Of a stretch of DNA of 64,000 nucleotides, positions 35,896 to 61,507 are shown piece after piece. Below the pieces are notes generated by a model, which saw only the letters and a program-made list of their open reading frames with translations, ran no database searches and was not told the DNA's origin. Position numbers and translations under genes: made by a program. Position 1 is the first letter of the stretch, and each line of letters begins with the position of its first letter. The DNA comes from Corallococcus sp. NCRR. Its GTDB lineage: Bacteria; Myxococcota; Myxococcia; Myxococcales; Myxococcaceae. The stretch is taken from positions 8,227,461 through 8,291,460 of the forward strand of contig NZ_CP114039.1 of assembly GCF_026965535.1 (NCBI RefSeq). The letters run 5' to 3'.

Positions 35896-35994
35896 GGCAG
35901 CCGACCGAGCACCGCTCGGAAACTTCCCAAGCCTTGCGCCCGCCCGATAGGATGTGGCGGTTTTCACTGCACTTTTTGCTGGGTGAAGGGCTTC

Positions 35995-38900
35995 ATGGAG
36001 CGTCGCGTCCTCATCGTCGAAAGCCAGAACGACTTCGCACTCAGCATGGCCTCCGTGCTCAAGAGCGCGGGCTACAACACGGCCATGGCCACCACTGCGT
36101 CAGACGCGCAGCGGGAGCTGGAGAAGCGCCGACCCGACCTCGTCGTCGTGCGCGCGGAGCTGCCGGACCAGTCCGGCTTCGCCCTCTGTGGGCAGATCAA
36201 GAAGGGCAAGTGGGGCCAGAACCTCAAGGTCCTCCTGCTCTCCTCCGACTCCGGCGTGGAGGGTCTGAACAAACACCGTGAGACGCCGGCCGCCGCGGAC
36301 GGCTACCTCGTCATCCCGTTCGAGATGGGCGAGCTGGCCTCCATGAGCGCCGGCATCGTGCCGCCCGGCTCCGACGAGTCCGACGCGGACCTGGACGCCG
36401 CGCTCTCCGGCACCCCGCGCGAAGCCCCGCCCCCCATGCCCGGCGTGCGCACGGGCGCTCCGCCGAAGCTGCCCAAGCGCGAGCGCCGCAGCGCGATGAC
36501 GGACGAGGACAAGTCCTTCATGGACCGGGCCTTCTCCTCCATCGCGGACCGCAAGGCGGAGCTGCTCGCGGAGTCGCGTCAGCTCAAGCGCCCGCCCCCG
36601 CGCCGCGAGCTGATGGGCACGCCCGAGGGTAAGATCCAGATCCTCCGGGACGAATTGAAGACGCGCGAAGCCCAGCTCGCGCGCCTGTCGGAAATCTGGA
36701 GCGTCCGCGAGCGCGAGCTGCTCTCCGTCGAGGACCGCCTCCACGAGAAGGACGTGGAACTGCAGGGCCTGAAGATGCAGGTGGACGACCTGCTGCGGCG
36801 CTTCAACGACGCGCAGCAGTCCATCGTCCAGAAGGAGCGCGAGCACGGCGCCACCGTCGACGACCTGCTGCTCCAGAAGTTCTCCTCGGAGAAGGACCTC
36901 ATCGAGGTCGTCGCCTCCAAGGAGAAGGACATCAACGTCCTGCGCAAGGAGGTCAACCTCCGCGACGAGGAGCTGGCCCGGCGCGGCGCGGACCTGGAGT
37001 CCTGGCGCAACGAGTTCGACAAGCTGGAGAAGCACCTCGGCGTCGTCACGCTGGAGTTCGAGGTCAAGGAGCAGAAGCTCCAGGACACCGTCCGCGCCAA
37101 CGAGGCGGACATCCTCCAGCTGCGTGAGCGCGGCGATCAGTTCGAGTCCGAGCTGTCCCGCACCGTCAGCGAGCGCGACCAGCGCTACGCCGAGCTGGAC
37201 GGTGAGCTTCAGGCCCTCCAGGAGCGGCTGACCCAGACGGAGCAGGAGCGCGACGCCACCGTGCGCGGCCTGGAGGCCCGGGCCACCACGGCGGAGGAGC
37301 ACGCCAGCCGTTCGGACGCGGAGATTGAGCGCCTCAACGCCGAGCGTGCCGCGCTGGAGCAGCGCCTCACGCAGCAGGTGGCGGACCTCGAGTCCGACAT
37401 CTCGCGCGTCACCGGCGAGCGCGACCAACTCCGGCTGGACAAGGACGCGCTGGAGCAGGACCTCACGCAGCGCGTGGAGGAGCGGGACGGGAAGCTGTCC
37501 GCGCTCGACCGCGAGCTGCAGGAGACCATCGCCCGCAACGAGAACAGCGAGGCCGAGCTCAACGCCACCATCCAGCAGCACCGCGAGCGCATCGGTGAGC
37601 TGGAGGGCGAGGTCGAGGCCGTCAAGACGCACCTGGAGGACCGCGAGAACGAGCTGACCGCGGAGCTCCAGGCGCTGCAGCAGGCCAAGGACGCGCTGGA
37701 GCAGGACCTCACCAGCCAGTTGGAGGACCTGCGCGCGGCGAAGGACGCCCTGGAGGCGGACCTCAACGGCCAGATTCAAGCGCTCACCGAGCAGTTGGAC
37801 GCGGCCCAGCGCCAGGGCGAACAGCTCTCCGCGCGCGTGGCCTCGCTCGAGGACACCGTCTCCCAGCGCGACGGCACCATCGAGGGCCTGCAGACCGACG
37901 TCTCCGACCGCGACGCCCGCATCGCCGAGCTGACCGGCAACCTGGAGGCCACGAGCCAGCAGCTCTCCGAGACGCAGAGCACGCTCTCCAGCACGGAAGC
38001 CACCCTCGCGGAGACGCGCGGCGAGTTGGAGGCCACCAGCCAGCAGCTCTCCGAGACGCAGGGCACGCTCTCCAACACGGAGGCCACCCTCTCCGAGACG
38101 CGCGGCGAGCTGGAGGCCACGAGCCAGCAGCTCTCCGAGACGCAGACGCGCCTGGCGCAGACGGAGGAGACGCTCTCCACCACGCGCGGTGAGCTCGAAG
38201 CCACCAGCCAGACGCTGGCCACCACCGAGTCCACGCTCGCGCAGACGCAGGAAACGCTGGCGCGCACGGAGGCTACGCTCTCCGAGACGCAGGCCACGCT
38301 CTCCAGCACCGAAGGCACGCTGGCGGAGACGCGCGGCGAGCTGGAGGCCACCAGCCAGACCCTGGCGGACACCCAGTCCAAGCTCGCGCAGACGGAGGAG
38401 ACGCTCTCCACCACGCGCGGTGAGCTGGAGGCCACCAGCCAGACCCTGGCGGACACGCAGGCCACCCTCTCCAGCACGGAGGGCACGCTCGCGGAGACGC
38501 GCGGGGAGCTGGAGGCCACCAGCCAGACGCTGACGGACACGCAGGCGAAGCTCGCGCAGACGGAAGGGACGCTCGCGTCCACCCAGGGCGAGCTGGAGGC
38601 CACCAGCCAGACGCTGGCCACCACCGAGTCCACGCTCGCGCAGACGCAGGACACGCTGGCGCGCACGGAAGGAACGCTCGCCGACACGCAGGCCACCCTC
38701 TCCAGCACCGAAGGCACGCTCGCGGAGACGCGCGGCGAGCTGGAGGCCACCAGCCAGACGCTCACGCAGACCCAGGAGACCCTGGAGTCGACGCGCGCGG
38801 ACCTGGCGAAGGTCACCCAGCACCGCGACGAGCTGGACGCGGAGCTCAACGAGACGCGCGACATCCTCCAGGAGACCAACGGCCTCCTCGCCCGCACCAC

Positions 38901-40584
38901 CGAGGAGCGCGACGCGCGCATCGCGGAGCTGGCGGCGCTCAACGCGGCGAAGGACGCGCTGGAGCAGGACCTCACCGGCCAGATTGGCCAGCTGCGCGCG
39001 GACCTGTCGGAGACGCAGGGGCTCTACAACGCGGAGCGCACCGCCCACGCGGCGCTCGCGGAGGAGACCACCGCGCGCATCCACGCCCTCACCGGCGAGC
39101 GCGACAACCTCACCGCGGAGCTGAACGCCACCTCGCAGCAGCTGGCCGACACGCAGGGCCAGCTCGCCAGCACCCAGGACGCGCTGGCCCGCGAGGAGCA
39201 GGCCCACGCGCAGTCCCGCCAGGCCGCCGCCAGCGCCCAGGAGGAGCTTACGCGCCAGCTCACCGAGGCCCAGGCCAACGGCGAGGACCTGGCCGAACAG
39301 CTCATCGTCACCAAGCACGAGCTGGGCACGCGCGTGTCGGAAGTCACGCAGCTGTCCTCCACGCTCGCGCAGACGGAGAACGCGCGGCACCACCTGGAGG
39401 ACCGCCTCCAGACGCTCACCCACGAGTCGCAGCGCCGTGAGGAGCTCCTCCAGAACGAGGTCGACACCAAGGGCAAGGAGCTGTCGGACACGCTCCGCAA
39501 GCTCACGCACGTGACGCAGGAGAAGATGCGTCAGGCGGAGGTGCTCAACCGCGAGGTCACCACCCGCACGGAGCAGGTGAAGCAGCTGGAAGGCCAGCTG
39601 GAGCACCAGGCCTCCGAGGCGAAGAAGCAGGCGGACGCGCTCCACCAGCAGATCGCCAACGTCTCCGGCGAGCTGGACGGCGCGCGCAAGGCCATCGCGG
39701 ACCGCGACGGACAGCTCCAGCAGGCCGCGAACCAGCAGAAGAAGCTCACCAGCGAGCGCGACGGGCTGGCCGGACAGCTCCAGCAGGCCCAGGCCCAGGC
39801 GCAACAGCAGGCCCAGCAGGCCCAGGCCGCCGCCGCCGAGGCGAAGAAGCAGTCGGACAGCCTGGCCGCGAAGCTCGCCCAGGCCGAGCAGCGCATCGCC
39901 CAGCTCTCCCAGGAGGCCCAGAAGTTCGCCGCCGACACGGAGGCGAAGCTCAAGGACTCCCAGGCCCAGCTGCAGGCTCGCACCAAGAAGGCCCAGGACC
40001 TGGAGCTGGCGCTGGAGAACGCCCAGAGCACCCGCGCCCGCGCGGAGAAGGAGCTCAACGCTCGCGTCGCCGCGGCGGAGACCAAGGCCAACGAGGCGGC
40101 CGCCAGGCTCGCCACGGCGCAGAAGGACCGCAAGGACCTGGAGGCCCGTCAGGCCAAGGAGCTGGAGGACCTCAACGCCAAGCAGAAGGCGGAGCTCGAG
40201 CGCCGCGAGGCCATCAAGGCCCAGGAGGTCGCCCGCCTCCAGACGTCCGTCCAGGAGAAGAGCAAGGCGCTCAAGGTCGCCGAGTTGGAGCTGGCCCGCT
40301 ACAAGACCAAGGCCCCGGCCGCCGCCGCACCCGCCGCGAAGGCCAAGGCCACCGAGGAGGAGCACCTGGCCGCCACCGTCCAGGCGAACCCGGTCATCCC
40401 GGCCGCCGCCAAGCCCCCGGCCAAGGCCGCCGCCAAGCCCGCCGCGAAGAAGGCCGCCGCCGCGCCCACCCCCGTCCCCCTGGACGAGGAGGCCCCGGAG
40501 CGCACCATGGTGATGCAGCTGCCCACCGCCCCCGAAGCCGGTGAGGACGACTGGACGGCGCTCGTCGACGAGCTCGACAAGTAG
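35995..40584 (+). CDS. aglZ: AglZ-like gliding-motility protein: N-terminal pseudo-receiver domain plus a ~1400-aa coiled coil with near-identical 28-aa tandem repeats
   Basis: Start at MERRVLIVESQNDFALSMASVLKSAGY (an upstream GTG at 35983 is also in frame). The receiver-like fold lacks the canonical acidic pocket (ESQND and VRAELPDQSG replace DD...D), as in AglZ/FrzS pseudo-receivers. The remainder is heptad-repeat coiled coil. Size and architecture match AglZ (1395 aa in M. xanthus). Confidence 0.55.
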   Translation: MERRVLIVESQNDFALSMASVLKSAGYNTAMATTASDAQRELEKRRPDLVVVRAELPDQSGFALCGQIKKGKWGQNLKVLLLSSDSGVEGLNKHRETPAAADGYLVIPFEMGELASMSAGIVPPGSDESDADLDAALSGTPREAPPPMPGVRTGAPPKLPKRERRSAMTDEDKSFMDRAFSSIADRKAELLAESRQLKRPPPRRELMGTPEGKIQILRDELKTREAQLARLSEIWSVRERELLSVEDRLHEKDVELQGLKMQVDDLLRRFNDAQQSIVQKEREHGATVDDLLLQKFSSEKDLIEVVASKEKDINVLRKEVNLRDEELARRGADLESWRNEFDKLEKHLGVVTLEFEVKEQKLQDTVRANEADILQLRERGDQFESELSRTVSERDQRYAELDGELQALQERLTQTEQERDATVRGLEARATTAEEHASRSDAEIERLNAERAALEQRLTQQVADLESDISRVTGERDQLRLDKDALEQDLTQRVEERDGKLSALDRELQETIARNENSEAELNATIQQHRERIGELEGEVEAVKTHLEDRENELTAELQALQQAKDALEQDLTSQLEDLRAAKDALEADLNGQIQALTEQLDAAQRQGEQLSARVASLEDTVSQRDGTIEGLQTDVSDRDARIAELTGNLEATSQQLSETQSTLSSTEATLAETRGELEATSQQLSETQGTLSNTEATLSETRGELEATSQQLSETQTRLAQTEETLSTTRGELEATSQTLATTESTLAQTQETLARTEATLSETQATLSSTEGTLAETRGELEATSQTLADTQSKLAQTEETLSTTRGELEATSQTLADTQATLSSTEGTLAETRGELEATSQTLTDTQAKLAQTEGTLASTQGELEATSQTLATTESTLAQTQDTLARTEGTLADTQATLSSTEGTLAETRGELEATSQTLTQTQETLESTRADLAKVTQHRDELDAELNETRDILQETNGLLARTTEERDARIAELAALNAAKDALEQDLTGQIGQLRADLSETQGLYNAERTAHAALAEETTARIHALTGERDNLTAELNATSQQLADTQGQLASTQDALAREEQAHAQSRQAAASAQEELTRQLTEAQANGEDLAEQLIVTKHELGTRVSEVTQLSSTLAQTENARHHLEDRLQTLTHESQRREELLQNEVDTKGKELSDTLRKLTHVTQEKMRQAEVLNREVTTRTEQVKQLEGQLEHQASEAKKQADALHQQIANVSGELDGARKAIADRDGQLQQAANQQKKLTSERDGLAGQLQQAQAQAQQQAQQAQAAAAEAKKQSDSLAAKLAQAEQRIAQLSQEAQKFAADTEAKLKDSQAQLQARTKKAQDLELALENAQSTRARAEKELNARVAAAETKANEAAARLATAQKDRKDLEARQAKELEDLNAKQKAELERREAIKAQEVARLQTSVQEKSKALKVAELELARYKTKAPAAAAPAAKAKATEEEHLAATVQANPVIPAAAKPPAKAAAKPAAKKAAAAPTPVPLDEEAPERTMVMQLPTAPEAGEDDWTALVDELDK
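37930..38790. repeat. Intragenic tandem repeat, 84-bp (28-aa, 4-heptad) period, ~10 copies, high identity (ETRGELEATSQTLADTQATLSSTEGTLA)
   Basis: Seen directly in the translated ORF and the DNA. Copies are nearly identical, suggesting recent expansion or concerted evolution. Confidence 0.8.
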
Positions 40585-52027: not shown

Positions 52028-53290
52028 ATGAACCCGGACGCACTGCGCAAGGCGACCCCCGAAGAGCAGTTCGAAGAAGTCACTCGCGGCACCGTGGATT
52101 TGCACGTGCCGGAGGACCTGAAGAAGAAGCTCCAGCGCTCGTATGACAAGGGCAAGCCGCTCATCATCAAGGCGGGCTTCGACCCCAGCCGTCCCGACCT
52201 GCACCTGGGCCACACGCTGCTGCTCACGCGCATGCGGCGCTTCCAGGAGTTCGGCCACACGGTGGTGTTCCTCATCGGTGACTTCACCGCCCTCATCGGG
52301 GACCCGTCCGGAAAGAACGCGGCCCGGCCTCCGCTCACCCGCGAGCAGGTGAAGGTCAACTCGGAGACGTACAAGCAGCAGGTCTTCAAGGTCCTGGACC
52401 CGGACAAGACGGTGGTGAAGTTCAACTCGGAGTGGCTCGACGCGCTGGGCACCGAGGGGATGATCCGCCTGGCCGCGCGCTACTCCGTGCAGCGCATGCT
52501 GGAGCGCGACGACTTCAAGAAGCGCTACCGGGAGAACACCTCCATCGCCATCCACGAGTTCCTCTACCCGCTCCTGCAGGGCTACGACTCCGTGGCGCTG
52601 AAGGCGGACGTGGAGCTGGGCGCGACGGATCAGCTCTTCAACCTGCTCGTGGGCCGTCAGCTGATGAAGGAAGAGGGCCTGGAGCCGCAGGTCATCATGA
52701 CCGGCCCCATCCTGGAGGGCCTGGACGCGAAGCTGGTGGACGGCGTCATCACCGGCAACAAGATGTCCAAGAGCCTGGACAACTACGTGGGCATCGACGA
52801 GCCGGCGGACAACATCTTCGGCAAGTTGATGAGCATCACGGACGACCTGATGTGGCGGTACTACAAGCTGCTCTCCGCCATGCCGCTCAAGCAGGTGCTG
52901 GAGCTGGAGGAGCAGACGAAGTCCGGCGCGGCGCACCCCAAGGCCGCCAAGGTCGCCTTCGCCCAGGAGATGGCCGCGCGCTTCCAAGGTGAGGAGGCCG
53001 GCCGCAAGGCGGCGGAGGACTTCGAGAAGCGCTTCGCCAAGAAGGAGCTGTCCACGGAGGACCTGCCGCTCGTGGAGGTTTCGCTCGCGGGCGCGGAGAA
53101 GCTGCTCGTCACGAAGCTGCTGCCGGAGACGAAGTTCGTCGCCTCCGCCACCGAGGCCCGAAAGATGATGGGCCAGGGCGGCGTGAAGGTGAACGGTGAG
53201 AAGGTCACCGACCCCAAGGCGGAGCTGGGGGCCGGCGAGTACACCGTGCAGGTGGGCAAGCTGAAGGTCACGCGGGTGAAGCTGTCCTGA
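52028..53290 (+). CDS. tyrS: Tyrosine--tRNA ligase (TyrS type 2, with C-terminal S4-like domain)
   Basis: Start at MNPDALRKA with the HLGH ([10 protein letters not shown]) and KMSKS motifs. Confidence 0.9.
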
Positions 53291-53301
53291 CGTGCCCTGG
53301 T

Positions 53302-53334
53302 GCCGCCCGGGCCTGATTTCAGGGCGCGGGCGGC
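53302..53334. terminator. GC hairpin between the convergent tyrS and SDR genes
   Basis: GCCGCCCGGGCC TGATTTCA GGGCGCGGGCGGC, a near-perfect inverted repeat. Confidence 0.3.
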
Positions 53335-54143
53335 TCCTTCGGCAGCGCGCCTTCGTACAGCGCGGCCGAGCGCCCCATCATGAAGCCGTGGGGCAAGAGC
53401 TTCATCATCGTCGCGAGGAAGCGGTTGAGGACGCCGGGCACGCAGAGTTCGCGGCGGTGCACGAAGGCCTCCACGGCGGTGCGCGCGCAGGCCTCCGCGG
53501 ACATGATGCCCACGTCGCCCGCCTTGAACTTCCGGTCCAGGCCGGACACCGACAGCATCTCCGTGGCGATGCCGCCGGGCGCGAAGACGGTGACGGACAC
53601 GCCCGCCTTGCGCAGCTCGTAGGCCAGGCCCCGCCCGTAGCTGATGACGAACGACTTCGTGGCCGCGTAGGCCGTCTGGTACGGCAGCGGCGCGAAGCCC
53701 GCCGTGCTGGCGACGAGCATCAGCGCCCCTCCCCCGCCCCGCTTCGCGAAGTGCGCCCCGAAGAGCTGGGCCATGCGCACCACGCTGGTGATGTTGGTGG
53801 CGAGCATCGCGTCGAAGGACTCGGGCTGCTGCTCCAGCGCGTGACCGAAGTAGGTGACGCCCGCGTTGAGGATGACGCCGTCGACGGTGCGGCCGGACGT
53901 GGCGGTCTGGAAGACGCGCTCGGCGTCGCCCGGCTTCGTGAGGTCCGCGGAGAGGGGCAGCACCTGCACGCCGTGCGCGGACTCCAGCTCCGCCTTGAGC
54001 GCGGCGAGCCGGTCCTCGCGGCGGGCGACGGCGATGATGTGGGCGCCGTGCTCCTTCGCGAGCAGGCGGGCCATCTCCAGCCCCAGGCCGGACGACGCGC
54101 CGGTGATGAGCACCCAGCGGCCTCGGAAATTCATCGGTTTCAT
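53319..54143 (-). CDS. Short-chain dehydrogenase/reductase (SDR) family oxidoreductase
   Basis: Start at MKPMNFRGRWVLITGASSGLG (TGxxxGxG), with the catalytic YxxxK (YAATK). Confidence 0.85.
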   Translation of the reverse strand: MKPMNFRGRWVLITGASSGLGLEMARLLAKEHGAHIIAVARREDRLAALKAELESAHGVQVLPLSADLTKPGDAERVFQTATSGRTVDGVILNAGVTYFGHALEQQPESFDAMLATNITSVVRMAQLFGAHFAKRGGGGALMLVASTAGFAPLPYQTAYAATKSFVISYGRGLAYELRKAGVSVTVFAPGGIATEMLSVSGLDRKFKAGDVGIMSAEACARTAVEAFVHRRELCVPGVLNRFLATMMKLLPHGFMMGRSAALYEGALPKEPPAP

Positions 54144-54229
54144 ATCGGGCGCGTTTATTTCGCGGCGCGGCGCCGGGCGCAACCGGGGAACAGCGAGCTT
54201 CGGGCGCCCCTGTTAGAGTCCGGCGCACC

Positions 54230-55396
54230 ATGCGCCTCTCCGGGTCGCTCGCCTGCTTCTTCCTGGCCCTCTCCACCGCCCCCGCCGCCTTCGCGGGGAG
54301 CGGCGTCTTCGTCACCGACGATGCCGTGGACGCCGTGGACCAGCCCGAGTCCTCCAAGGTCGTCTTCTCCGTGCAGCCGGGCGTGTCCTATCCGCTGATG
54401 AAGAAGGGCGGCCCCGACCGCGCGTGGTGCAAGCTCCAGGGGCCCAAGGCGGAGGGCTGGGTGCTCTGCGATGGCACGCCCACGGATGCCGTCCAGAAGG
54501 CACCGGACACGGACGCGCTCGTGCGCGCGGACCATGAGAACACGCGCCAGCAGCAGGCATCGCGAGGTGGCGGAGTGTCCCTCGCGGAGGCGAAGCCCAT
54601 TGGGAGCGGAGCCAGCGCGGGTGCTCCCGCGGCGGAGCCGGACGACGAAGAAGAGGTCACCGTGGCGGTGCGAGCCCCCGCGGGCCGCGCGCCGGCTCCA
54701 GGCGACGCGGCGGCGTGCGCGAGCACGTGTGACCAACCACCCCTCTTCGCCAAGGCCCCGGCGCTGTCCGCGATGGACCGCGAGGTGCTGGACCTGTGCC
54801 CCGCGCGGCCCGACGCGAGCGTGAGCGCTGGGGACGTGCAGCGCTTCTTCGCGAAGCACTACGACGACGCACGGGTGCAGCGCGCGCTGTCCGCGGCGGG
54901 CCGTCCGGGTACGAAGCAGGCGAACATCGAATGGCTCACCAGCCTGTGGGTGAGCACCGGCCCGCGCAACGCGTTCACGCACGTCTTCTGCGGGGACGAC
55001 TGGCGGCACGGCCCGATTGGCGGCCTCCACTTCCTGCCCCGCTACGCGCAGCTCGAGGCGGAGGGAAAGGTCTGCTACCAGGGCCCGGCCAGGGGCGAAG
55101 AGGCGGTGCGCGGCGAGCAGTACCTCATCCGTTTCAAGGGCCTGTCCCCGTGGTCCTGCGGCGTGAAGCGCACGGGCGGCTTCTCGACGTCGCAGGACGC
55201 GGTCTCCATCGCCGCCATCGGAACCCGGGCGTTCGCGCGTTGCTGTGCGCGGGGCGGGGCGAAGAAGGAGGGCGGCGTGTACTCGGCGCCGGACGTGGGG
55301 GGCGGCAACTGGCGCATCTGGTGCGGCACACGCAACGGCACCTACGGCATCGCCACGCTGCACCCCACCGACGAAGCCGCCACCTGCGCGGAGTAG
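54230..55396 (+). CDS. Secreted cysteine-rich protein with possible EndoU/XendoU-like RNase catalytic signature in the C-terminal half
   Basis: Signal peptide MRLSGSLACFFLALSTAPAAFA and 14 Cys. The C-terminal half contains FTHVFCGDD ... GGLHF ... FKG, with His-x16-His-x38-Lys spacing reminiscent of EndoU. The assignment is tentative. Confidence 0.6.
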   Translation: MRLSGSLACFFLALSTAPAAFAGSGVFVTDDAVDAVDQPESSKVVFSVQPGVSYPLMKKGGPDRAWCKLQGPKAEGWVLCDGTPTDAVQKAPDTDALVRADHENTRQQQASRGGGVSLAEAKPIGSGASAGAPAAEPDDEEEVTVAVRAPAGRAPAPGDAAACASTCDQPPLFAKAPALSAMDREVLDLCPARPDASVSAGDVQRFFAKHYDDARVQRALSAAGRPGTKQANIEWLTSLWVSTGPRNAFTHVFCGDDWRHGPIGGLHFLPRYAQLEAEGKVCYQGPARGEEAVRGEQYLIRFKGLSPWSCGVKRTGGFSTSQDAVSIAAIGTRAFARCCARGGAKKEGGVYSAPDVGGGNWRIWCGTRNGTYGIATLHPTDEAATCAE

Positions 55397-55400
55397 CGGC

Positions 55401-55428
55401 GGACCGGCGCCGCGAAGGACGCCGGTCC
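55401..55428. terminator. Bidirectional hairpin GGACCGGCG ... CGCCGGTCC between convergent genes
   Basis: 9-bp perfect inverted repeat with a 10-nt loop; no clear U-tract. Confidence 0.3.
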
Positions 55429-55444
55429 CCTTCCCCTCCGAGGC

Positions 55445-58400
55445 CTACCGCGCCTTGTCCACGGTGAGCACCGTGCCCGTGGAGTAGGCGGTGAACTCCG
55501 GCGCGTACATGGACTGCACCGTCGCCGGGCCCACGCGGAAGGTGCCCGCCATGTTCGCGCGCAGCCGGTACTTGAAGGTGTACTCACCGGCCGGCAGCGC
55601 CTCGAAGAAGAAGTTCGTCCCCGAGTCGCGCGTCTCCTCGTACCAGACGATGCCCAGGTCCCACTTGTGGCGGGACTGCGCGTTCTCCGGCTCCAGGCCC
55701 GCGGCGCGCGGGTCCCTCAGGTGCACGTACTCCGCCGCGTGCTTCGTGCGCAGCGACAACTGCACCTCCACCTCGTCACCGGGCCGCAGCGTCGCGCCGT
55801 CCGACAGCGGGCGCAGCAGCGTCTGGTTGCCTTCGCGGAGGCGCACGAAGTAGCGGCGCGACACCTGGAAGAAGTCCCCGCGCTCCTCCTTGGGCAGTTG
55901 CTCCGTGGAGAAGTGCCACGTCGCGGACGCGATGGCGAAGCCCGGCGTCGTCTTCTCCACCACCGTGGTCGCCGTGCTCGCGTTCACCTCCGGACCTGGG
56001 ACGACGACCTGGTTCTTCTTCCCCGTGTACACGTCCGGCGAGAAGGTCATGGTCACCGCTTTGGAGCCCACCGTCACCTTCAGCTCCTCGCGCGCGGCCA
56101 GCGAGCCCTCCGCCTCCATGTAGTTGACGAGCGCGTAGAGCGCCTCCGCCGTGGCGCGCGTGGACTTCCAGTGGTTCACCTTCTTGTCCAGGAGCAACCA
56201 CTGCACCAGGCCCGCGCGGCGAGGGTCCTTCGGACGCAGCTCCGACAGCGTGCGCAGCGCGAAGGCGTGCGTCTCCGTGGAGTCGTTGTACCAGAGCCAG
56301 CTCCGGTCCTCCGGCTGCCAGTACGTGCCCAGGTCCTGCGACGTCTTCGCGGAGTCCATCACGCTGTCCCAGACCTTCTGCGCGTCCTTCGCGCGCTTCG
56401 ACCGGTTCAGCGTGAGCGCCAGGTACCCCTTGAGGAACGGCGAGTGCTCCTTCCAGTGCTTGAAGGAGAAGTCGAGCATGCGCTGCCGCTCGGCCGCCGT
56501 GAGCGCCTCGCCCGTGTAGCGCGCGTCCGGATAGGCGGACGCCACGAAGTTGAGGAACGTGAGGAACTCCCAGCCCTGGTCCTTCTTCATCAGCCGGCTC
56601 GCGTAGTCCTGCCGGAAGTGCTTCGCCAGGTAGCCCCACGCGGGCTCCGTCATGTTGGGTGACACCTCCACCCCGTGCTCCATGGCGCGCGACAGGCCAT
56701 GCAGGATGTAGAGCGTCATGTACGGCGACGACGGACCGCCCGGCCACCAGGGGAAGCCACCGTCCGCGTTCTGCGCCTTGCGCAGCTTCTGCTGCGAAGA
56801 GATGCGCTGGGCATTGGCCACCTTCGGGTCCAGCACGCGCAGGAGCGCCTGGTCCGAGTCCGCGCCGCCCTTCGCCTCGTTGAGCCAGGGCGACTCCTCC
56901 AGCGTCATCTTCCGGTTCGGGTCCAGGCCGTCGAAGGTCTCGAAGCGCGTGCTGCGCTCGCTCAGGTCCTTGGCCACCTTCGCCACCGCCGGGTACTTGG
57001 TGAAGAGGCTGGAGACGATGCCCGTGGACACGAAGCGGTTGAGCGTCTGCTCCGTGCACTCGTAGGGGTAGTCCACCAGGTACGGCAGCGCCTGGAGCAC
57101 GGAGTAGAAGAGCTGCGCGTCCACGGTCACGACGAGCTGCTCGTTCACCCGCGTGGGGTCGTCCGACTTCTTCAGGTCGTCGAACGTCAGCGTCCGGCGA
57201 TCCGTGTTGTTCAGCATGGCGAAGCGCGACTGCGCCAGGTGCATGCGGCCGGGCAGCACCGGCAGGGGCCGCAGCTCGCCGTCGCTGAACGCGCCCGTCT
57301 TCGCGACGACGCGGAAGGCCACCGGCCCCACCCGCGCGGGCGTGGTGATGGGGAAGCGCAGGTTCGTGCCCTTCCCCGCCGCCACCGTGAAGGCCTGCGA
57401 TGTCGTCTTCACGCCGAACTCCGTGAGCAGGCTCTTCTGCGTGTCCGGATCCACGATGTCGAACGTGAGCTGGCCCTGCTGCGTCTGGGTCCCCGCGTTG
57501 TTCACCACGACCTCCAGCTCCGCGCGGTCACCCTCGCGCAGGAAGCGCGGCAGGTACGGGCGCACCATCAGCTCCTTCACGGTGCGGGTGGTGCGCTGCG
57601 TGGAGCCGCCGCGCAGGTCCCGCGTGAGCGCGTGCACCCAGACGTCCCACGCCGTCACCGAGTCCGGCACCGTGAACTCCAGCACCGCCGCTCCGTCCGG
57701 CCCGGTGAGCAGCTGCGGAATCCAGAACGCCGTCTCCGCGAAGTTGGAGCGCAGCGGCCCCTCCGGCCCCTCCCCCGGCTCCGGGGCGCCGGGAGCGCCC
57801 TTGATGATCTGGATGATCTCCCGCCGCTTCTCCTCCAGCACCCTGCCGACCTTCGGCGCGGACTCCGCGGCGGACGGCGCGGGCGACGGAGGCGGAGGCG
57901 GAGGCGGTGCACCGTCCGACTGCGGCTGGACGGCCCCGGGCTTCATGGCGCGCATGCGGTGGCCGCCGTAGTAGCTGCGGTAGCCCGGACCGCCCAGCCC
58001 GTAGCCGTCCTCGAACTTCAGCGTGTCTTCGCTGAGAGCCGGCGCGGAGGGCCCTTCCCGGACGAGCGCGTCGAAGAGCCAATCCGCGCCGAAGACGCCA
58101 CCGGACGCCTTGAAGTCCACGTAGACGATCTGCTGCGGATACAGCTGCGCCACCTGCGGCGGCGTGTGCGGCCCGAAGACGTTGAGCGACTGATCGTACA
58201 TGTACGCGAGCAGCTCCGCGGCCCCGGCCTCCAGCTTCGCGCCCTTCGGTCCCTTCACCGTCACGCGGAAGGTCTCCTTCGCGCCGGGCCGCAGCGTGTC
58301 GCGGAACGTGGCGAACTCCAGGCTGAGTTCCTTGTCATCGAAGGGCACGGCCACCGTCTGCTGGAAGCTCAGCGTCTGCCAGTCGCGCACCATCGAGAGC

Positions 58401-61400
58401 ACCACCGTGAAGCCGCCGCGCAGGGACTCCGTCACCGGAAGCTCCACCACTGCGCGCCCCTGCCCCGCCGTCAACTGGCGGTGCTCGACGCGATTGCGCC
58501 CCTGGTACACGTCCATCACCAGCGGCTGGCCGTCGAAGCCGGAGGCCACCATCAGCCGCGCCACCTCGCCCACGCGCACGGAGGCGCGCTCCGCCGCCAG
58601 CACCGCGGGCAACCCCGCTGGGGCGTGGGCCCCCGCCACCACGAAGTCCCGTTGCGCGGTGGCCTTCTGGCCGAACGCGTCCGCCGTCTCGTAGCGCAGG
58701 CGGTACGCCCCCGCGCGCAGCGCCGGAATCTTCACGGTGGCGACACCGTCCGCGCCATGCGTCACGGCCGCCTGCGCCACCTCCGCGCCGTCGTCCCAGC
58801 GTTGCAGCGTCTGCTCCACGTCGTAGGCCGTGTCCCAGCGCGCCTTCTGCGAATCCCCCGGCGTGGGAGAGGTCTCCCTCGCCGACTGGGTGTCCGCGTC
58901 CAGCGGCCTGGGCTTCTCCACCGGGAGCTCGGACGGCATCAGCGGGCGGCCCGGGGCCTTCAAGGCGACGAGCCGCCAGCGGCCGGGGCCCGCCTGCGGC
59001 GCGCCATCCAGGTTCGAGCGGACGAGCCGCACCTCCGACGGGAAGTCCTCGCGGACGAAGCCCACGTCGGAGTCCACGCGGCCCTCCACCGACACGAAGC
59101 CCAGGCGGAAGGCGCGGCTCGCGGAGCGCGTCTCACCGCCCTCGTCCGTCAGGTCCGCCTCCACGCGGTAGCGCCACGACATGCCCTGCGCCTTCGCGAG
59201 CCGCTCGTCCGCTTCCGGGGTGAACGCCACGGTGAAGCCGCCGTCCTCGCCCACCGTGGCCGTCCCGGAGGCCACCAGGTCCGTGGTGGCCGGGATGCGC
59301 TCCCAGAACCACCAGCGCGGCAGCACCGGCTCGCGCGACACGCGCCACTTCACCGCGCCGCTCGCCACCGGCAGGCCGAAGTAGTAGCGGGCCTCGCCCT
59401 TGAACGTCGCGCGCCGGTTGAGCCGCAGCGGCTCCTGCGCGTCCTTCAGCGTCACCTCGAAGGTGGGCCGCTTGTACTCCTCCACCCGCACGCCCGCGTA
59501 GCCGCTGGGGCTCGTGCGCACCGTCCACTGGCCCAGGGGCCGCCCCGAGGGGAGGTCGAACTCGCCCGCCACCGACCCGAACAAGTTGGTGCGCGCCTCG
59601 CGCTTGGCCACCTCCTGTCCGTTGGGGTCGACGAGCGTCACCGTCACCGGCGACTCCGGCAGGACGCGGTAGCGCTTGGACGCCTCATCCGTGCGGTAGG
59701 CCACCACCTTCCACAGCAGCTTCTGCTGGGGACGGTAGACGGCGCGGTCCGTGTAGATGAGCGTCTGGTCCGTCGGGGTCCAGTCGTGGAGGGGGGACAG
59801 GTACACCGAGCCCGGGAGCACCATCACGTTCTTGCCCCGGCCCAGCACCAGCTCCATGTCCTCGTAGCGGTCGGCGTTCTTGCCCGTGAGCAACAGGTCG
59901 CCGTTGGCGTCGGTGCGGCGGCTGACGATGTTGAAGCGGCGGGTGCCGTAGTCCGACTTCACCAGCCGCACCTCCACGTTCGGAGCGCTCGCTCCCGTGG
60001 CCCCGTCCACCACGTGGACCTCCACCTGGTTGGGGGTCGCCTTGCGCACCGTCGCCGCCCAGGTCGACACGGACATCGGCAGGGCGAGAATGCGGCTGTT
60101 CTTCTTCGCGAAGTCCTCGCGCGTGGACAGGGCGATGATGTACGCGCCCGTCTTGAGCGCCGGCGGCGTCACGAACGTCTGGTGCGGCTGGAAGTCCGGC
60201 GTGGGCGGCAGCGCCGTGCTCCACACAGCCTCCGGTTTGCGCGACGCCACCATGCGGAGCATCTCCGCGGTGGAGGGGTACAGCGACAGGTCCTCGCCGG
60301 GCTTCGCGAGCCGTGCCTCCAGGTCCACCGCGTACGCCCGGAAGTACACCGTGCCCACGTTGCGGTGGCCCACCAGGATGGAGCGCTTGCCCGGCCCGTC
60401 CACCTGCATCCCGGTCGCGAACAACTCCGGGGCCTCCAGCCTGCCCACCAGCGCCGCGCACTGCATGCCGCCCACAGACTTGGGCCACGCCTCCGCGCCC
60501 GCCTTCGCCAGGGCATGCGCGGTGATGGCGCGGCCCGCCTCCTCCTCCATCACCGCGAGCTGGTTCTGCCCCTTGGACCACCACGGCACGTCCCGGAAGC
60601 CCTTCAGGTGCGCGGCCAGGTGCTCCTGGATGCGCCGCTTGTCCGCGGCGTCCTTGAACGACGTGGACAGCACCTCGTAGCGCCGCAGCCGCGCCTCCAG
60701 CGCCGCCTCACGCCGGCCCGCCGCCTGGTGCCACGCCTCCAGGTCCCCCAGCACCGCCGCCACCTTCATCAGCGGGTGCGCGGAGGGGTCCTTCAGCTCC
60801 ACCTTCGGCGTGCCCTCCAGGAGCGCGCCCAGGTCCAACCGGTACACGCCCTGCTCCTGCTCCGGGCGCCACAGGTTCGTGTCCTCCAGCGAGGCCACCC
60901 ACAGGTACGTCACCGCGTCGCGCACCGTGGAGCGGATGCCCTCGGGATACGTGTTGGGCTGGACGTACTCGGACAGCCCCTTCACGGGCTCGGTGCCGAA
61001 CTTCTGCCGTGACTCCCAGATGGCGGCGTACGTGCGCTGGATCTCCGCTGAAAGCTGATCCTTCGTCCACGCCTTCAGGTCCACCGGCCCGGAGGACACC
61101 ACCTGCTCGCGCTTGCCAATCTCGTAGCTGTACGCCTGCTGGTAGTTCGCGAGCACCGCCGCGTAGAACAGCTGGAGCGTGGCCTGCTGCCGAAGCCCCT
61201 CCGGCCAGGGCTGTTCACGCAGGAAGCGCACCGCCGTCTCATGGCCATGCAGCCGCGAGCGCAGTTGCACCGTGCGCACCAGCGCGCGCGTCCACTCGTC
61301 TGCGTCACCCCGGGCCTTCGCCGCGGCGAGTCGGGCCTCGGCCCCCTGCGCGGCGGACTCGACCTGGTCGTCCTCGACGAGCGCGTCGATGGCCTTCCAC

Positions 61401-61507
61401 GTCGGGGGCCCCTTCGCGGCAGGGGCCGCCACGGACACGGAGGACAGCGCGAGGGACAGCAGACACAGGACGACGGCGGCGGTACGCGGGCGCGGTGGAG
61501 AAGACAT
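55445..61507 (-). CDS. Bacterial alpha-2-macroglobulin family protein with intact thioester (CTEQ) motif, secreted
   Basis: 2020 aa with a signal peptide, MG domains, and a thioester domain carrying YPYECTEQ (encoded around 57044-57061). C-terminal receptor-binding-like region present. Confidence 0.85.
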   Translation of the reverse strand: MSSPPRPRTAAVVLCLLSLALSSVSVAAPAAKGPPTWKAIDALVEDDQVESAAQGAEARLAAAKARGDADEWTRALVRTVQLRSRLHGHETAVRFLREQPWPEGLRQQATLQLFYAAVLANYQQAYSYEIGKREQVVSSGPVDLKAWTKDQLSAEIQRTYAAIWESRQKFGTEPVKGLSEYVQPNTYPEGIRSTVRDAVTYLWVASLEDTNLWRPEQEQGVYRLDLGALLEGTPKVELKDPSAHPLMKVAAVLGDLEAWHQAAGRREAALEARLRRYEVLSTSFKDAADKRRIQEHLAAHLKGFRDVPWWSKGQNQLAVMEEEAGRAITAHALAKAGAEAWPKSVGGMQCAALVGRLEAPELFATGMQVDGPGKRSILVGHRNVGTVYFRAYAVDLEARLAKPGEDLSLYPSTAEMLRMVASRKPEAVWSTALPPTPDFQPHQTFVTPPALKTGAYIIALSTREDFAKKNSRILALPMSVSTWAATVRKATPNQVEVHVVDGATGASAPNVEVRLVKSDYGTRRFNIVSRRTDANGDLLLTGKNADRYEDMELVLGRGKNVMVLPGSVYLSPLHDWTPTDQTLIYTDRAVYRPQQKLLWKVVAYRTDEASKRYRVLPESPVTVTLVDPNGQEVAKREARTNLFGSVAGEFDLPSGRPLGQWTVRTSPSGYAGVRVEEYKRPTFEVTLKDAQEPLRLNRRATFKGEARYYFGLPVASGAVKWRVSREPVLPRWWFWERIPATTDLVASGTATVGEDGGFTVAFTPEADERLAKAQGMSWRYRVEADLTDEGGETRSASRAFRLGFVSVEGRVDSDVGFVREDFPSEVRLVRSNLDGAPQAGPGRWRLVALKAPGRPLMPSELPVEKPRPLDADTQSARETSPTPGDSQKARWDTAYDVEQTLQRWDDGAEVAQAAVTHGADGVATVKIPALRAGAYRLRYETADAFGQKATAQRDFVVAGAHAPAGLPAVLAAERASVRVGEVARLMVASGFDGQPLVMDVYQGRNRVEHRQLTAGQGRAVVELPVTESLRGGFTVVLSMVRDWQTLSFQQTVAVPFDDKELSLEFATFRDTLRPGAKETFRVTVKGPKGAKLEAGAAELLAYMYDQSLNVFGPHTPPQVAQLYPQQIVYVDFKASGGVFGADWLFDALVREGPSAPALSEDTLKFEDGYGLGGPGYRSYYGGHRMRAMKPGAVQPQSDGAPPPPPPPSPAPSAAESAPKVGRVLEEKRREIIQIIKGAPGAPEPGEGPEGPLRSNFAETAFWIPQLLTGPDGAAVLEFTVPDSVTAWDVWVHALTRDLRGGSTQRTTRTVKELMVRPYLPRFLREGDRAELEVVVNNAGTQTQQGQLTFDIVDPDTQKSLLTEFGVKTTSQAFTVAAGKGTNLRFPITTPARVGPVAFRVVAKTGAFSDGELRPLPVLPGRMHLAQSRFAMLNNTDRRTLTFDDLKKSDDPTRVNEQLVVTVDAQLFYSVLQALPYLVDYPYECTEQTLNRFVSTGIVSSLFTKYPAVAKVAKDLSERSTRFETFDGLDPNRKMTLEESPWLNEAKGGADSDQALLRVLDPKVANAQRISSQQKLRKAQNADGGFPWWPGGPSSPYMTLYILHGLSRAMEHGVEVSPNMTEPAWGYLAKHFRQDYASRLMKKDQGWEFLTFLNFVASAYPDARYTGEALTAAERQRMLDFSFKHWKEHSPFLKGYLALTLNRSKRAKDAQKVWDSVMDSAKTSQDLGTYWQPEDRSWLWYNDSTETHAFALRTLSELRPKDPRRAGLVQWLLLDKKVNHWKSTRATAEALYALVNYMEAEGSLAAREELKVTVGSKAVTMTFSPDVYTGKKNQVVVPGPEVNASTATTVVEKTTPGFAIASATWHFSTEQLPKEERGDFFQVSRRYFVRLREGNQTLLRPLSDGATLRPGDEVEVQLSLRTKHAAEYVHLRDPRAAGLEPENAQSRHKWDLGIVWYEETRDSGTNFFFEALPAGEYTFKYRLRANMAGTFRVGPATVQSMYAPEFTAYSTGTVLTVDKAR

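Follow-up and report, generated by a model that had tools for sequence, protein, structure and literature searches.

The 64,000-nucleotide stretch of Corallococcus sp. NCRR DNA analyzed here (contig NZ_CP114039.1, positions 8,227,461 to 8,291,460; hereafter the window) carries on its forward strand, at 54230..55396, a gene whose product is a member of the EndoU superfamily. The protein is probably a stand-alone endoribonuclease that is exported through the Sec pathway and degrades periplasmic or extracellular RNA. The alpha-2-macroglobulin (A2M) encoded next to it is most likely not its partner, and the protein itself is most likely not an injected toxin. Its architecture consists of a signal peptide, an SH3b-like domain, a disordered linker, and a two-lobed EndoU domain, which are placed in the window as follows.

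54230..55396 (+): whole gene for the SH3b-EndoU protein, predicted to be exported; from the list of open reading frames (ORFs), with an ATG start, 388 codons, and a TAG stop
54230..54295 (+): Sec-type signal peptide, residues 1–22, with predicted cleavage between AFA and GS, as read from the sequence
54296..54475 (+): SH3b-like beta-barrel domain, residues 23–82, with the invariant C67 and C80
54476..54709 (+): low-complexity linker rich in A, P, G, D, and E, residues 83–160; scores of the predicted local distance difference test (pLDDT) mostly below 50
54710..54964 (+): helical N-terminal extension of the EndoU domain, residues 161–245, with C163, C167, and C190
54965..55393 (+): EndoU catalytic core, residues 246–388, beta-rich

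The Pfam family PF14436 (EndoU_bacteria) matched residues 246–338 of the window protein with a score of 30.2 bits (cut-off, 25.3 bits; E = 6.5e-7), and all 39 aligned relatives matched this family above the gathering score. PF14436 represents the EndoU superfamily (InterPro IPR037227) and shares a clan with PF09412, the eukaryotic XendoU family (gathering score, 32.3 bits). The latter, to which the earlier note on this DNA had also pointed, gave no match to the window protein at E <= 10 and was matched by 7 of the 39 relatives, with E values down to 6.7e-6. A profile of the alignment that combines the C-terminal domain with remote relatives (A2) was run against 177,635 PDB sequences and retrieved human EndoU (9ftw, E = 1.4e-10), XendoU (2c1w, 2e-6), and MERS Nsp15 (5yvd, 1.6e-4). 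Both His motifs were aligned in these matches, and in Nsp15 the C-terminal TFYP motif was aligned too. The profile of the first family alignment (A1) gave only a non-significant Nsp15 match (E = 2.2) in the PDB. The earlier note had suspected a resemblance to EndoU, XendoU, and Nsp15 that might be coincidental; similarity to the EndoU fold was found both with profiles and with structures, and the C-terminal part is a member of the EndoU superfamily with the EndoU fold.

The same note had suggested a comparison with a XendoU-type structure. In the model, 195 residues align to human EndoU (9ftw), versus 119 to the minimal toxin domain, which places the modelled structure far nearer to the eukaryotic enzymes with their two lobes. 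Because the core comprises only 143 of these residues at most, the alignment has to include the helical part, which must be the equivalent of the N-terminal extension in the eukaryotic enzymes. The extension contains four helices within residues 181–240 of the model, and the alignment based on a hidden Markov model reaches the last of them, where LTsLW pairs with DDLKNMWF of the human enzyme. Malard et al. termed this extension eukaryote-specific and gave it a Ca2+-sensing role (PMC11275989), and Zhang et al. placed some bacterial EndoUs nearer to the eukaryotic forms (PMC3113570).

The putative active site comprises the residues listed below, together with one Lys that we exclude.

54980..54982 (+): H251, first catalytic His (FTHVFCGDD), aligned with human H285 and with FEHVVYGD of Nsp15
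54995..54997 (+): D256, acidic residue at His+5 and counterpart of human E290 in the alignment; invariant in 118 of 118 representatives
55028..55030 (+): H267, second catalytic His (GGLHF), aligned with human H300; invariant in 118 of 118
55136..55138 (+): K303, the Lys of the FKG motif singled out in the earlier note; not conserved, Lys in 18 of 119 representatives
55166..55168 (+): K313, probable catalytic Lys in the motif PWSCGVKRTGGF; invariant in 117 of 117
55355..55363 (+): T376-L-H378, C-terminal [ST]-x-[YH] active-site motif, from the profile alignment to Nsp15

The two His residues are 16 residues apart, and the spacing in EndoU enzymes is typically 12–18 residues (PMC7297114). The first is His in 113 of the 118 representatives and Tyr in the other five (P0081, P0084, P0085, P0086, and P0088), all of which belong to the Stigmatella clade and read FTYVFCGDD, with H267, K313, D256, and all Cys residues kept. 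The activity of these Stigmatella-clade orthologs may be altered or lost. In human EndoU, E290 locks the catalytic His, and the E290D mutant is faster than the wild type (PMC11275989); D256 keeps this position acidic. The residue preceding H251, T250, is invariant, and its human counterpart is E284, a ligand of Ca2+ site 1 whose loss abolishes activity (PMC11275989). Since the position of E284 is occupied by an invariant Thr, the Ca2+ site is probably not conserved in the window protein. Of the two eukaryotic positions that were mapped, one Ca2+ ligand and one relay residue, the E290 position is kept as an acidic residue and the E284 position is lost.

The third residue of the triad is probably K313, judging from conservation and alignment. 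The earlier note had described a block of FTHVFCGDD, GGLHF, and FKG with a His-His-Lys arrangement. The three motifs are indeed present, at residues 249, 264, and 302, and are separated by 6 (WRHGPI) and 33 residues rather than by 7 and 38; both His residues are aligned and conserved, and the Lys has to be reassigned. K303 lies 36 residues after H267, and it is not the catalytic Lys because a Lys is found there in only the 18 representatives mentioned above, R, H, T, A, Q, V, or S taking its place in the remainder. K313 is the sole invariant Lys downstream of H267, at a distance of 46 residues (43 in the human enzyme). In a global alignment with BLOSUM62, PW-SCGV-K313-RTG pairs with NW-DGYY-K343-EVG of human EndoU, and IATLH pairs with IATAY. 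As the human sequence beyond residue 318 was checked only against the published D330, K343, and chain length of 410, we can but infer the equivalence of K313 and K343. At the C-terminus, the segment ivTlYPd of the A2 profile was aligned to VQTFYPR and VATFYPQ of Nsp15, and all 118 representatives display T/S-x-Y/H (TxY in 65, TxH in 31, and SxY in 22). Partner roles have been described for T278 and S229 of XendoU (PMC3482391).

The window protein contains 13 Cys residues, one fewer than counted in the earlier note. C9 is in the signal peptide, and the 12 residues of the mature protein (67, 80, 163, 167, 190, 254, 282, 310, 338, 339, 365, and 386) are invariant in the 39 aligned relatives. Disulfide pairing was predicted from the covariation in presence and absence of Cys columns among 69 remote relatives. 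An N-terminal Cys (column 163/167/169) varies together with C282 (phi = 0.94; both present in 23 sequences, one in 2, and neither in 44), as do C339 with C365 (phi = 0.96) and C167 with C310 (phi = 0.89). C190 and C254 are each present in 66 of the 69 relatives, and C386 pairs with a column that is replaced by C338 in the myxobacterial family. On the basis of this covariation and of C67 and C80 in the SH3b-like domain, six disulfides would account for all 12 mature Cys residues. The predicted pairs are C67-C80 in the SH3b-like domain and five in the nuclease domain, namely C190-C254, C163 or C167 with C282 and whichever of these two is left with C310, C339-C365, and C338-C386. C254 is part of the catalytic motif H-V-F-C-G-D, and C190 belongs to the helical extension. 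We hypothesize that a C190-C254 bond would staple the two lobes together at the place where the animal enzymes use Ca2+.

The clear signal peptide reported in the earlier note stands. The N-terminus, MRLSGSLACFFLALSTAPAAFA followed by GSG, opens with a basic n-region, continues with a hydrophobic core, and has A-x-A ahead of the conserved start of the mature protein. All homologs retain this n/h/c organization, including the small residues at -3 and -1, with variation in the sequence itself. The pLDDT of this region is below 50. Together with the 12 invariant Cys residues, the signal peptide suggests that the protein is exported, and the earlier description of a free-standing secreted protein holds at this strength. 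A lipoprotein was considered and rejected, as C9 is too near the N-terminus, lacks a lipobox, and is not conserved, and there is no lipobox Cys at +1. Tat export was also rejected because of the lack of a twin-Arg motif. The N-terminal domain of the mature protein adopts an SH3-like beta-barrel fold in the model, with SH3b domains of cell-wall hydrolases as its best structural matches. The Pfam families SH3_3 and SH3_4 did not match the window protein and matched two of the 39 relatives weakly (E = 0.0016 and 0.0073). The linker that follows ranges from ~10 to ~110 residues across the family and has the highest number of nonsynonymous substitutions per site (dN) of the gene.

The reading frame itself, as delimited in the earlier note, was confirmed with its ATG start and 388 residues. 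Its GC content at third codon positions is 0.91, a value in keeping with a genuine gene where the genome has ~70% GC, and an antisense ORF at 54155..55363 (-) was rejected as a high-GC artifact. The product is 100% identical to RefSeq WP_206792805.1, an "EndoU domain-containing protein" of unclassified Corallococcus; the 90%-identity cluster of this entry consists of Corallococcus proteins, most of which bear the same name and a few of which were also deposited as "hypothetical protein". The product is therefore of a known kind, already labelled in public annotation and biochemically uncharacterized. A literature search combining EndoU with Myxococcus, Corallococcus, predation, exoproteome, and vesicles, which did not extend to proteomics supplements, found no paper on the protein or its orthologs. 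A promoter scan gave no sigma-70-like site, and the terminator-like matches of the scan were disregarded as they lie inside the coding sequence.

In total, 163 homologs of the window protein were found. A genome scan with alignment A1, using one genome per GTDB species, located the family in 72 loci, all of them from Myxococcota except for one record labelled Comamonas, and the gene is essentially single-copy per genome. The genera are Corallococcus, Myxococcus, Pyxidicoccus, Hyalangium, Archangium, Cystobacter, Vitiosangium, and Citreicoccus, in addition to metagenome-assembled genomes (MAGs). The gene is a conserved core gene of Myxococcaceae and Archangiaceae. The exceptional record (BNCN01000003.1, locus L056), titled Comamonas sp. 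KCTC 72670, displays the complete Myxococcus-type arrangement of tyrS, EndoU, and A2M with 67–84% identity and may have been given the wrong label or contain foreign sequence.

When 1.84 billion representatives were searched exhaustively with a profile, only 116 matched with E <= 1e-3, 15 of them with E <= 1e-30. The 10 remote matches that were scanned all belong to PF14436. In several remote matches, a signal peptide, a two-Cys beta domain, and a linker likewise precede the EndoU domain. Proteins of this architecture form a sister clade that is often met in metagenomes and has members in Hyphomicrobiaceae and Thiothrix/Thiolinea, neither of which is known to be predatory. In a Thiothrix MAG (L078:3775-6901), the sister-clade gene lies between an Endonuclease_NS gene (PF01223), which is followed by an 83-residue ORF, and a convergent Exo_endo_phos gene (PF03372); the locus looks like a nucleic-acid degradation neighborhood. 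Some remote relatives outside the window are built differently. P0166, of 695 residues, combines a ThsB-like TIR domain (PADLOC, E = 1.4e-51) with a hydrophobic segment and a Cys-containing EndoU domain of the same subtype, and P0140, P0145, and P0148 have an N-terminal membrane segment and an unknown region of ~250 residues ahead of the EndoU domain. These four may be defense or signaling variants.

The known enzymes nearest in design are human EndoU (PP11) and XendoU of PF09412, which share with the window protein the two-lobed domain with the helical N-terminal extension, as well as the motifs F-x-H-V-F-x-G-[DE] and G-[GF]-[LF]-H, the Lys, the C-terminal I-A-T-x-[YH], and, in the human enzyme, the acidic residue at His+5. 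The animal enzymes also have a signal peptide and small disulfide-rich N-terminal domains (PMC11275989), which are of the somatomedin-B type and not SH3b-like as in the window protein. Sequence identity is, however, only 16–18%, and the window protein does not pass the PF09412 threshold. The Ca2+ site-1 ligand E284 is replaced with an invariant Thr in the window family and S289 with C254 in the catalytic hairpin, and the five predicted disulfides of the nuclease domain are a further difference. Coronavirus Nsp15 (NendoU) and arterivirus nsp11 align with the family over the hairpin bearing the two His residues and over the C-terminal T-F-Y-P, but they are cytoplasmic, hexameric or dimeric parts of the replicase polyprotein without signal peptide, disulfides, or SH3b domain.

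Among bacterial proteins, the EndoU toxin tips (CdiA-CT of E. coli STEC_O31, 5hkq; Neisseria MafB; Rhs/LXG) are likewise exported and fall into the same Pfam family, PF14436. They are minimal domains of ~130 residues on large delivery regions, strain-polymorphic, and always accompanied by an immunity gene, and the window protein shows none of these three features. The sister clade has the same architecture, with a beta domain ending in W-V-x-x-x-C-G and with C190 and C254 kept, and it also lacks an immunity gene and is labelled only "EndoU domain-containing protein". It differs from the window protein in its Lys motif (K-G-Y), its C-terminus (T-F-Y-P-D-A-T-P), and a smaller number of disulfides, at ~25% identity. 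All2314 of Anabaena may be related to this clade. RNases of the RNase A family and periplasmic RNase I of E. coli are exported as well, with the producer protected by compartmentation; this is a functional analogy and not ancestry. RNase A uses a His-His-Lys chemistry with 2',3'-cyclic phosphate products, as proposed here for the window protein, but RNase I has a different (T2) fold, RNase A is only remotely related if at all, and neither gave a detectable sequence match. A distant evolutionary relationship of EndoU to RNase A has been put forward (PMC7297114).

The earlier note had also suggested a functional pairing of the EndoU protein with its A2M neighbor. The features in question are the following.

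55445..61507 (-): alpha-2-macroglobulin gene, 2020 residues, context only; Pfam bMG10, A2M, MG2, and A2M_BRD, with CTEQ
55398..55430 (no strand): GC-rich hairpin between the convergent stop codons, a possible shared terminator; perfect 9-bp core stem GGACCGGCG/CGCCGGTCC

The neighbor is an A2M, as the Pfam matches and the CTEQ thioester motif (residue 1484) attest; its N-terminal signal does not resemble a canonical lipobox, unlike those of the enterobacterial lipoprotein A2Ms. The pairing, in contrast, found no support. The two genes are convergent, with 48 bp between their stop codons, and a functional operon of the two was rejected for this reason. The hairpin in between has a folding energy of -26.6 kcal/mol with a z-score of only -1.4 relative to shuffled sequences, which is not significant and gives weak evidence for a terminator. 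Upstream, the EndoU gene is divergent from a short-chain dehydrogenase (SDR) gene (53319..54182, -), and the other neighbors in the window are tyrS and genes for a 5-FTHF cyclo-ligase and a kinase. Of 76 related loci, ~47 have tyrS upstream on the same strand and ~40 have A2M downstream in convergent orientation. Several genomes have extra genes inserted before A2M, the more diverged myxobacterial lineages have neither tyrS nor A2M adjoining the EndoU gene, and the sister-clade loci have unrelated neighbors and no A2M. Because the adjacency to A2M is limited to certain lineages, interrupted in some, and absent in the diverged lineages and the sister clade, it fits inherited synteny and not a functional pairing.

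In Myxococcus (L001:8642-10001, compared with 52028-54182 of the window), the EndoU gene directly follows tyrS on the same strand at ~96 bp. The SDR gene that separates the two in opposite orientation is a Corallococcus-specific insertion, and a tyrS operon was accordingly rejected as a requirement. The window seems to lack the YmdB-like gene that precedes tyrS in Myxococcus. Elsewhere in the window, a gene at 35983-40584 (+) encodes a 1533-residue protein with a response-regulator receiver and then a very long coiled coil, which resembles AglZ or FrzS; this gene explains the strong AT-skew peak (0.25-0.49) at 36–40 kb.

The mechanism that we propose for the exported nuclease is as follows. 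The 22-residue signal peptide would be cleaved, and the protein would fold in the oxidizing periplasm with six disulfides. The SH3b-like barrel on its flexible linker would then probably tether the enzyme to a polymer such as peptidoglycan, its presumed ligand. The nuclease, with the two-lobed architecture of XendoU and human EndoU in which a helical extension joins a beta-sheet core, would cut single-stranded RNA through acid/base catalysis like that of RNase A. The catalytic acid and base would be H251 and H267, with K313 stabilizing the transition state, D256 holding H251, and T376 and H378 lining the nucleotide pocket; cleavage would leave 2',3'-cyclic phosphate and 5'-OH ends. Export and disulfide-dependent folding would protect the producer by compartmentation, so that no immunity protein would be needed. 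The enzyme would likely serve nutrient recovery by degrading RNA, in the periplasm or outside the cell, that stems from lysed prey, kin, or matrix. RNA turnover or scavenging is our best guess because the gene behaves as a core gene, features of toxins are absent, and the same architecture occurs in bacteria not known as predators; the Thiothrix locus and an EndoU-like nuclease in the exoproteome of Anabaena (All2314, PMC10957091) also contributed to this view.

Several points weigh against this reading. A profile of the C-terminal half (A3) retrieved no EndoU entry from the PDB, its one match, to a geopilin, being spurious. Export is a prediction, as are the cleavage site and the disulfide pairs, and the final location could be the periplasm, the cell surface, vesicles, or the medium. 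The proposed equivalence of K313 and K343 comes from the BLOSUM62 global alignment only, as the alignments to the human sequence by hmmsearch and hmmalign ended short of the Lys. Uridine is recognized in human EndoU and Nsp15 by a Ser at Lys+4 (S347 in the human enzyme); the window protein seems to have a Gly, G317, at this position, and the base preference may therefore differ. Literature searches yielded no link between EndoU and myxobacteria and no experiment on the protein or any ortholog. The enzymatic activity and the physiological role are what we infer, and the scavenging role, a best guess, comes from context and the lack of toxin features, the Thiothrix neighborhood being a single case.

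Other explanations were ranked by likelihood in the order of a toxin, a periplasmic guard RNase, a non-catalytic derivative, and a chance resemblance. A diffusible or vesicle-delivered antibacterial RNase that cleaves tRNA or mRNA inside competitors or prey, like the CdiA-CT, MafB, and Rhs toxins, is unlikely. It is true that most of the described bacterial EndoU domains are toxin tips (PMC3113570, PMC3482391), that Sec-dependent EndoU toxins such as Neisseria MafB exist (PMC4287609), and that myxobacteria are predators that secrete lytic proteins and vesicles. However, no immunity gene is located next to the window gene, where there is no room for one, and no conserved downstream gene was found in the 76 myxobacterial or sister-clade loci; there is no immunity candidate, since no conserved small gene follows the EndoU gene at any related locus. 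There is likewise no trafficking, translocation, or delivery region, as only the signal peptide, the 60-residue SH3b-like domain, and the disordered linker precede the nuclease. Rather than a variable cassette, the gene is a single-copy ortholog with conserved tyrS-EndoU synteny in 72 Myxococcota species. The ratios of nonsynonymous to synonymous substitution rates (dN/dS) between the window gene and its orthologs are 0.075-0.25 for the EndoU domain, 0.22-0.62 for the SH3b-like domain, and 0.14-0.61 for the linker, which shows purifying selection and not the diversification of a toxin tip. The absence of an immunity gene, a delivery region, and a strain-variable cassette led us to conclude that the protein is not a polymorphic toxin. 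The occurrence of the same architecture in Thiothrix and Hyphomicrobiaceae and the structural proximity to the eukaryotic enzymes (195 aligned residues versus 119 for the minimal toxin domain) point in the same direction.

It also seems improbable that the protein is a periplasmic guard RNase, anchored to the wall by its SH3b-like domain, that destroys incoming RNA, or the RNA of the cell itself after a breach of the inner membrane during phage infection, developmental lysis, or attack, alongside envelope defense proteins such as A2M. The resemblance of the N-terminal domain to SH3b domains of cell-wall hydrolases, the A2M neighbor as an envelope defense protein, and the fusion of a ThsB-like TIR defense domain to the same EndoU type in P0166 would all suit such a role, but none of the PADLOC defense-system models matched the window protein, the A2M gene is convergent and adjacent in some lineages only, and the neighborhood (tyrS, SDR, 5-FTHF cyclo-ligase, and kinase genes) contains no phage-defense genes. 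Nothing in the data separates periplasmic retention from secretion. We give very little credence to a catalytically dead or repurposed EndoU fold that binds RNA or another ligand. The Tyr in place of the first catalytic His in 5 of 118 representatives, the apparent Gly in place of the uridine-recognizing Ser, and the Thr in place of E284 would be compatible with it; against this, both His residues are present in the window protein and in 113 of the 118 relatives, the Lys, the Asp lock, and the Thr are invariant or nearly so, the catalytic domain is under strong purifying selection, and bacterial and arteriviral EndoUs need no metals (PMC11275989). Finally, a coincidental resemblance of motifs in a protein unrelated to EndoU has practically no chance of being correct. 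A search of PDB sequences with the window protein as the single query gave no match and an NCBIfam scan matched no family, but the Pfam match above the cut-off, the significant profile-to-PDB matches, and the structure comparison refute it.

That the window gene encodes an EndoU protein is of little practical surprise, given that the exact protein has been annotated automatically as EndoU and that Sec-exported bacterial EndoUs have already been noted in comparative-genomics papers. The "eukaryote-specific" extension, described as the Ca2+ sensor of the human enzyme, is nevertheless present in a bacterial clade, a finding of relevance to how the eukaryotic enzymes arose and are regulated. We tentatively propose, as a possibility that we regard as less than likely, that the myxobacterial clade and its sister clade are the bacterial counterpart of the full two-lobed eukaryotic EndoU/XendoU, with the C190-C254 disulfide replacing Ca2+ site 1. 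If this is true, the enzyme would need export and oxidation before it became active, and the eukaryotic enzymes could plausibly derive from secreted, stand-alone bacterial EndoUs stapled by disulfides. Such EndoUs would then also represent, in living organisms, the state of a secreted His-His-Lys RNase rich in disulfides that has been invoked for the proposed link between EndoU and RNase A.

Because a conserved core-genome EndoU without an immunity gene exists, bacterial EndoUs are not all polymorphic toxins, and domain-based "toxin" calls in gene lists of myxobacterial predation need care. RNA makes up a large share of the biomass of prey. The literature searches made around EndoU brought up no myxobacterial RNase that acts outside the cell, and the window protein is a candidate for such an enzyme in these bacteria.

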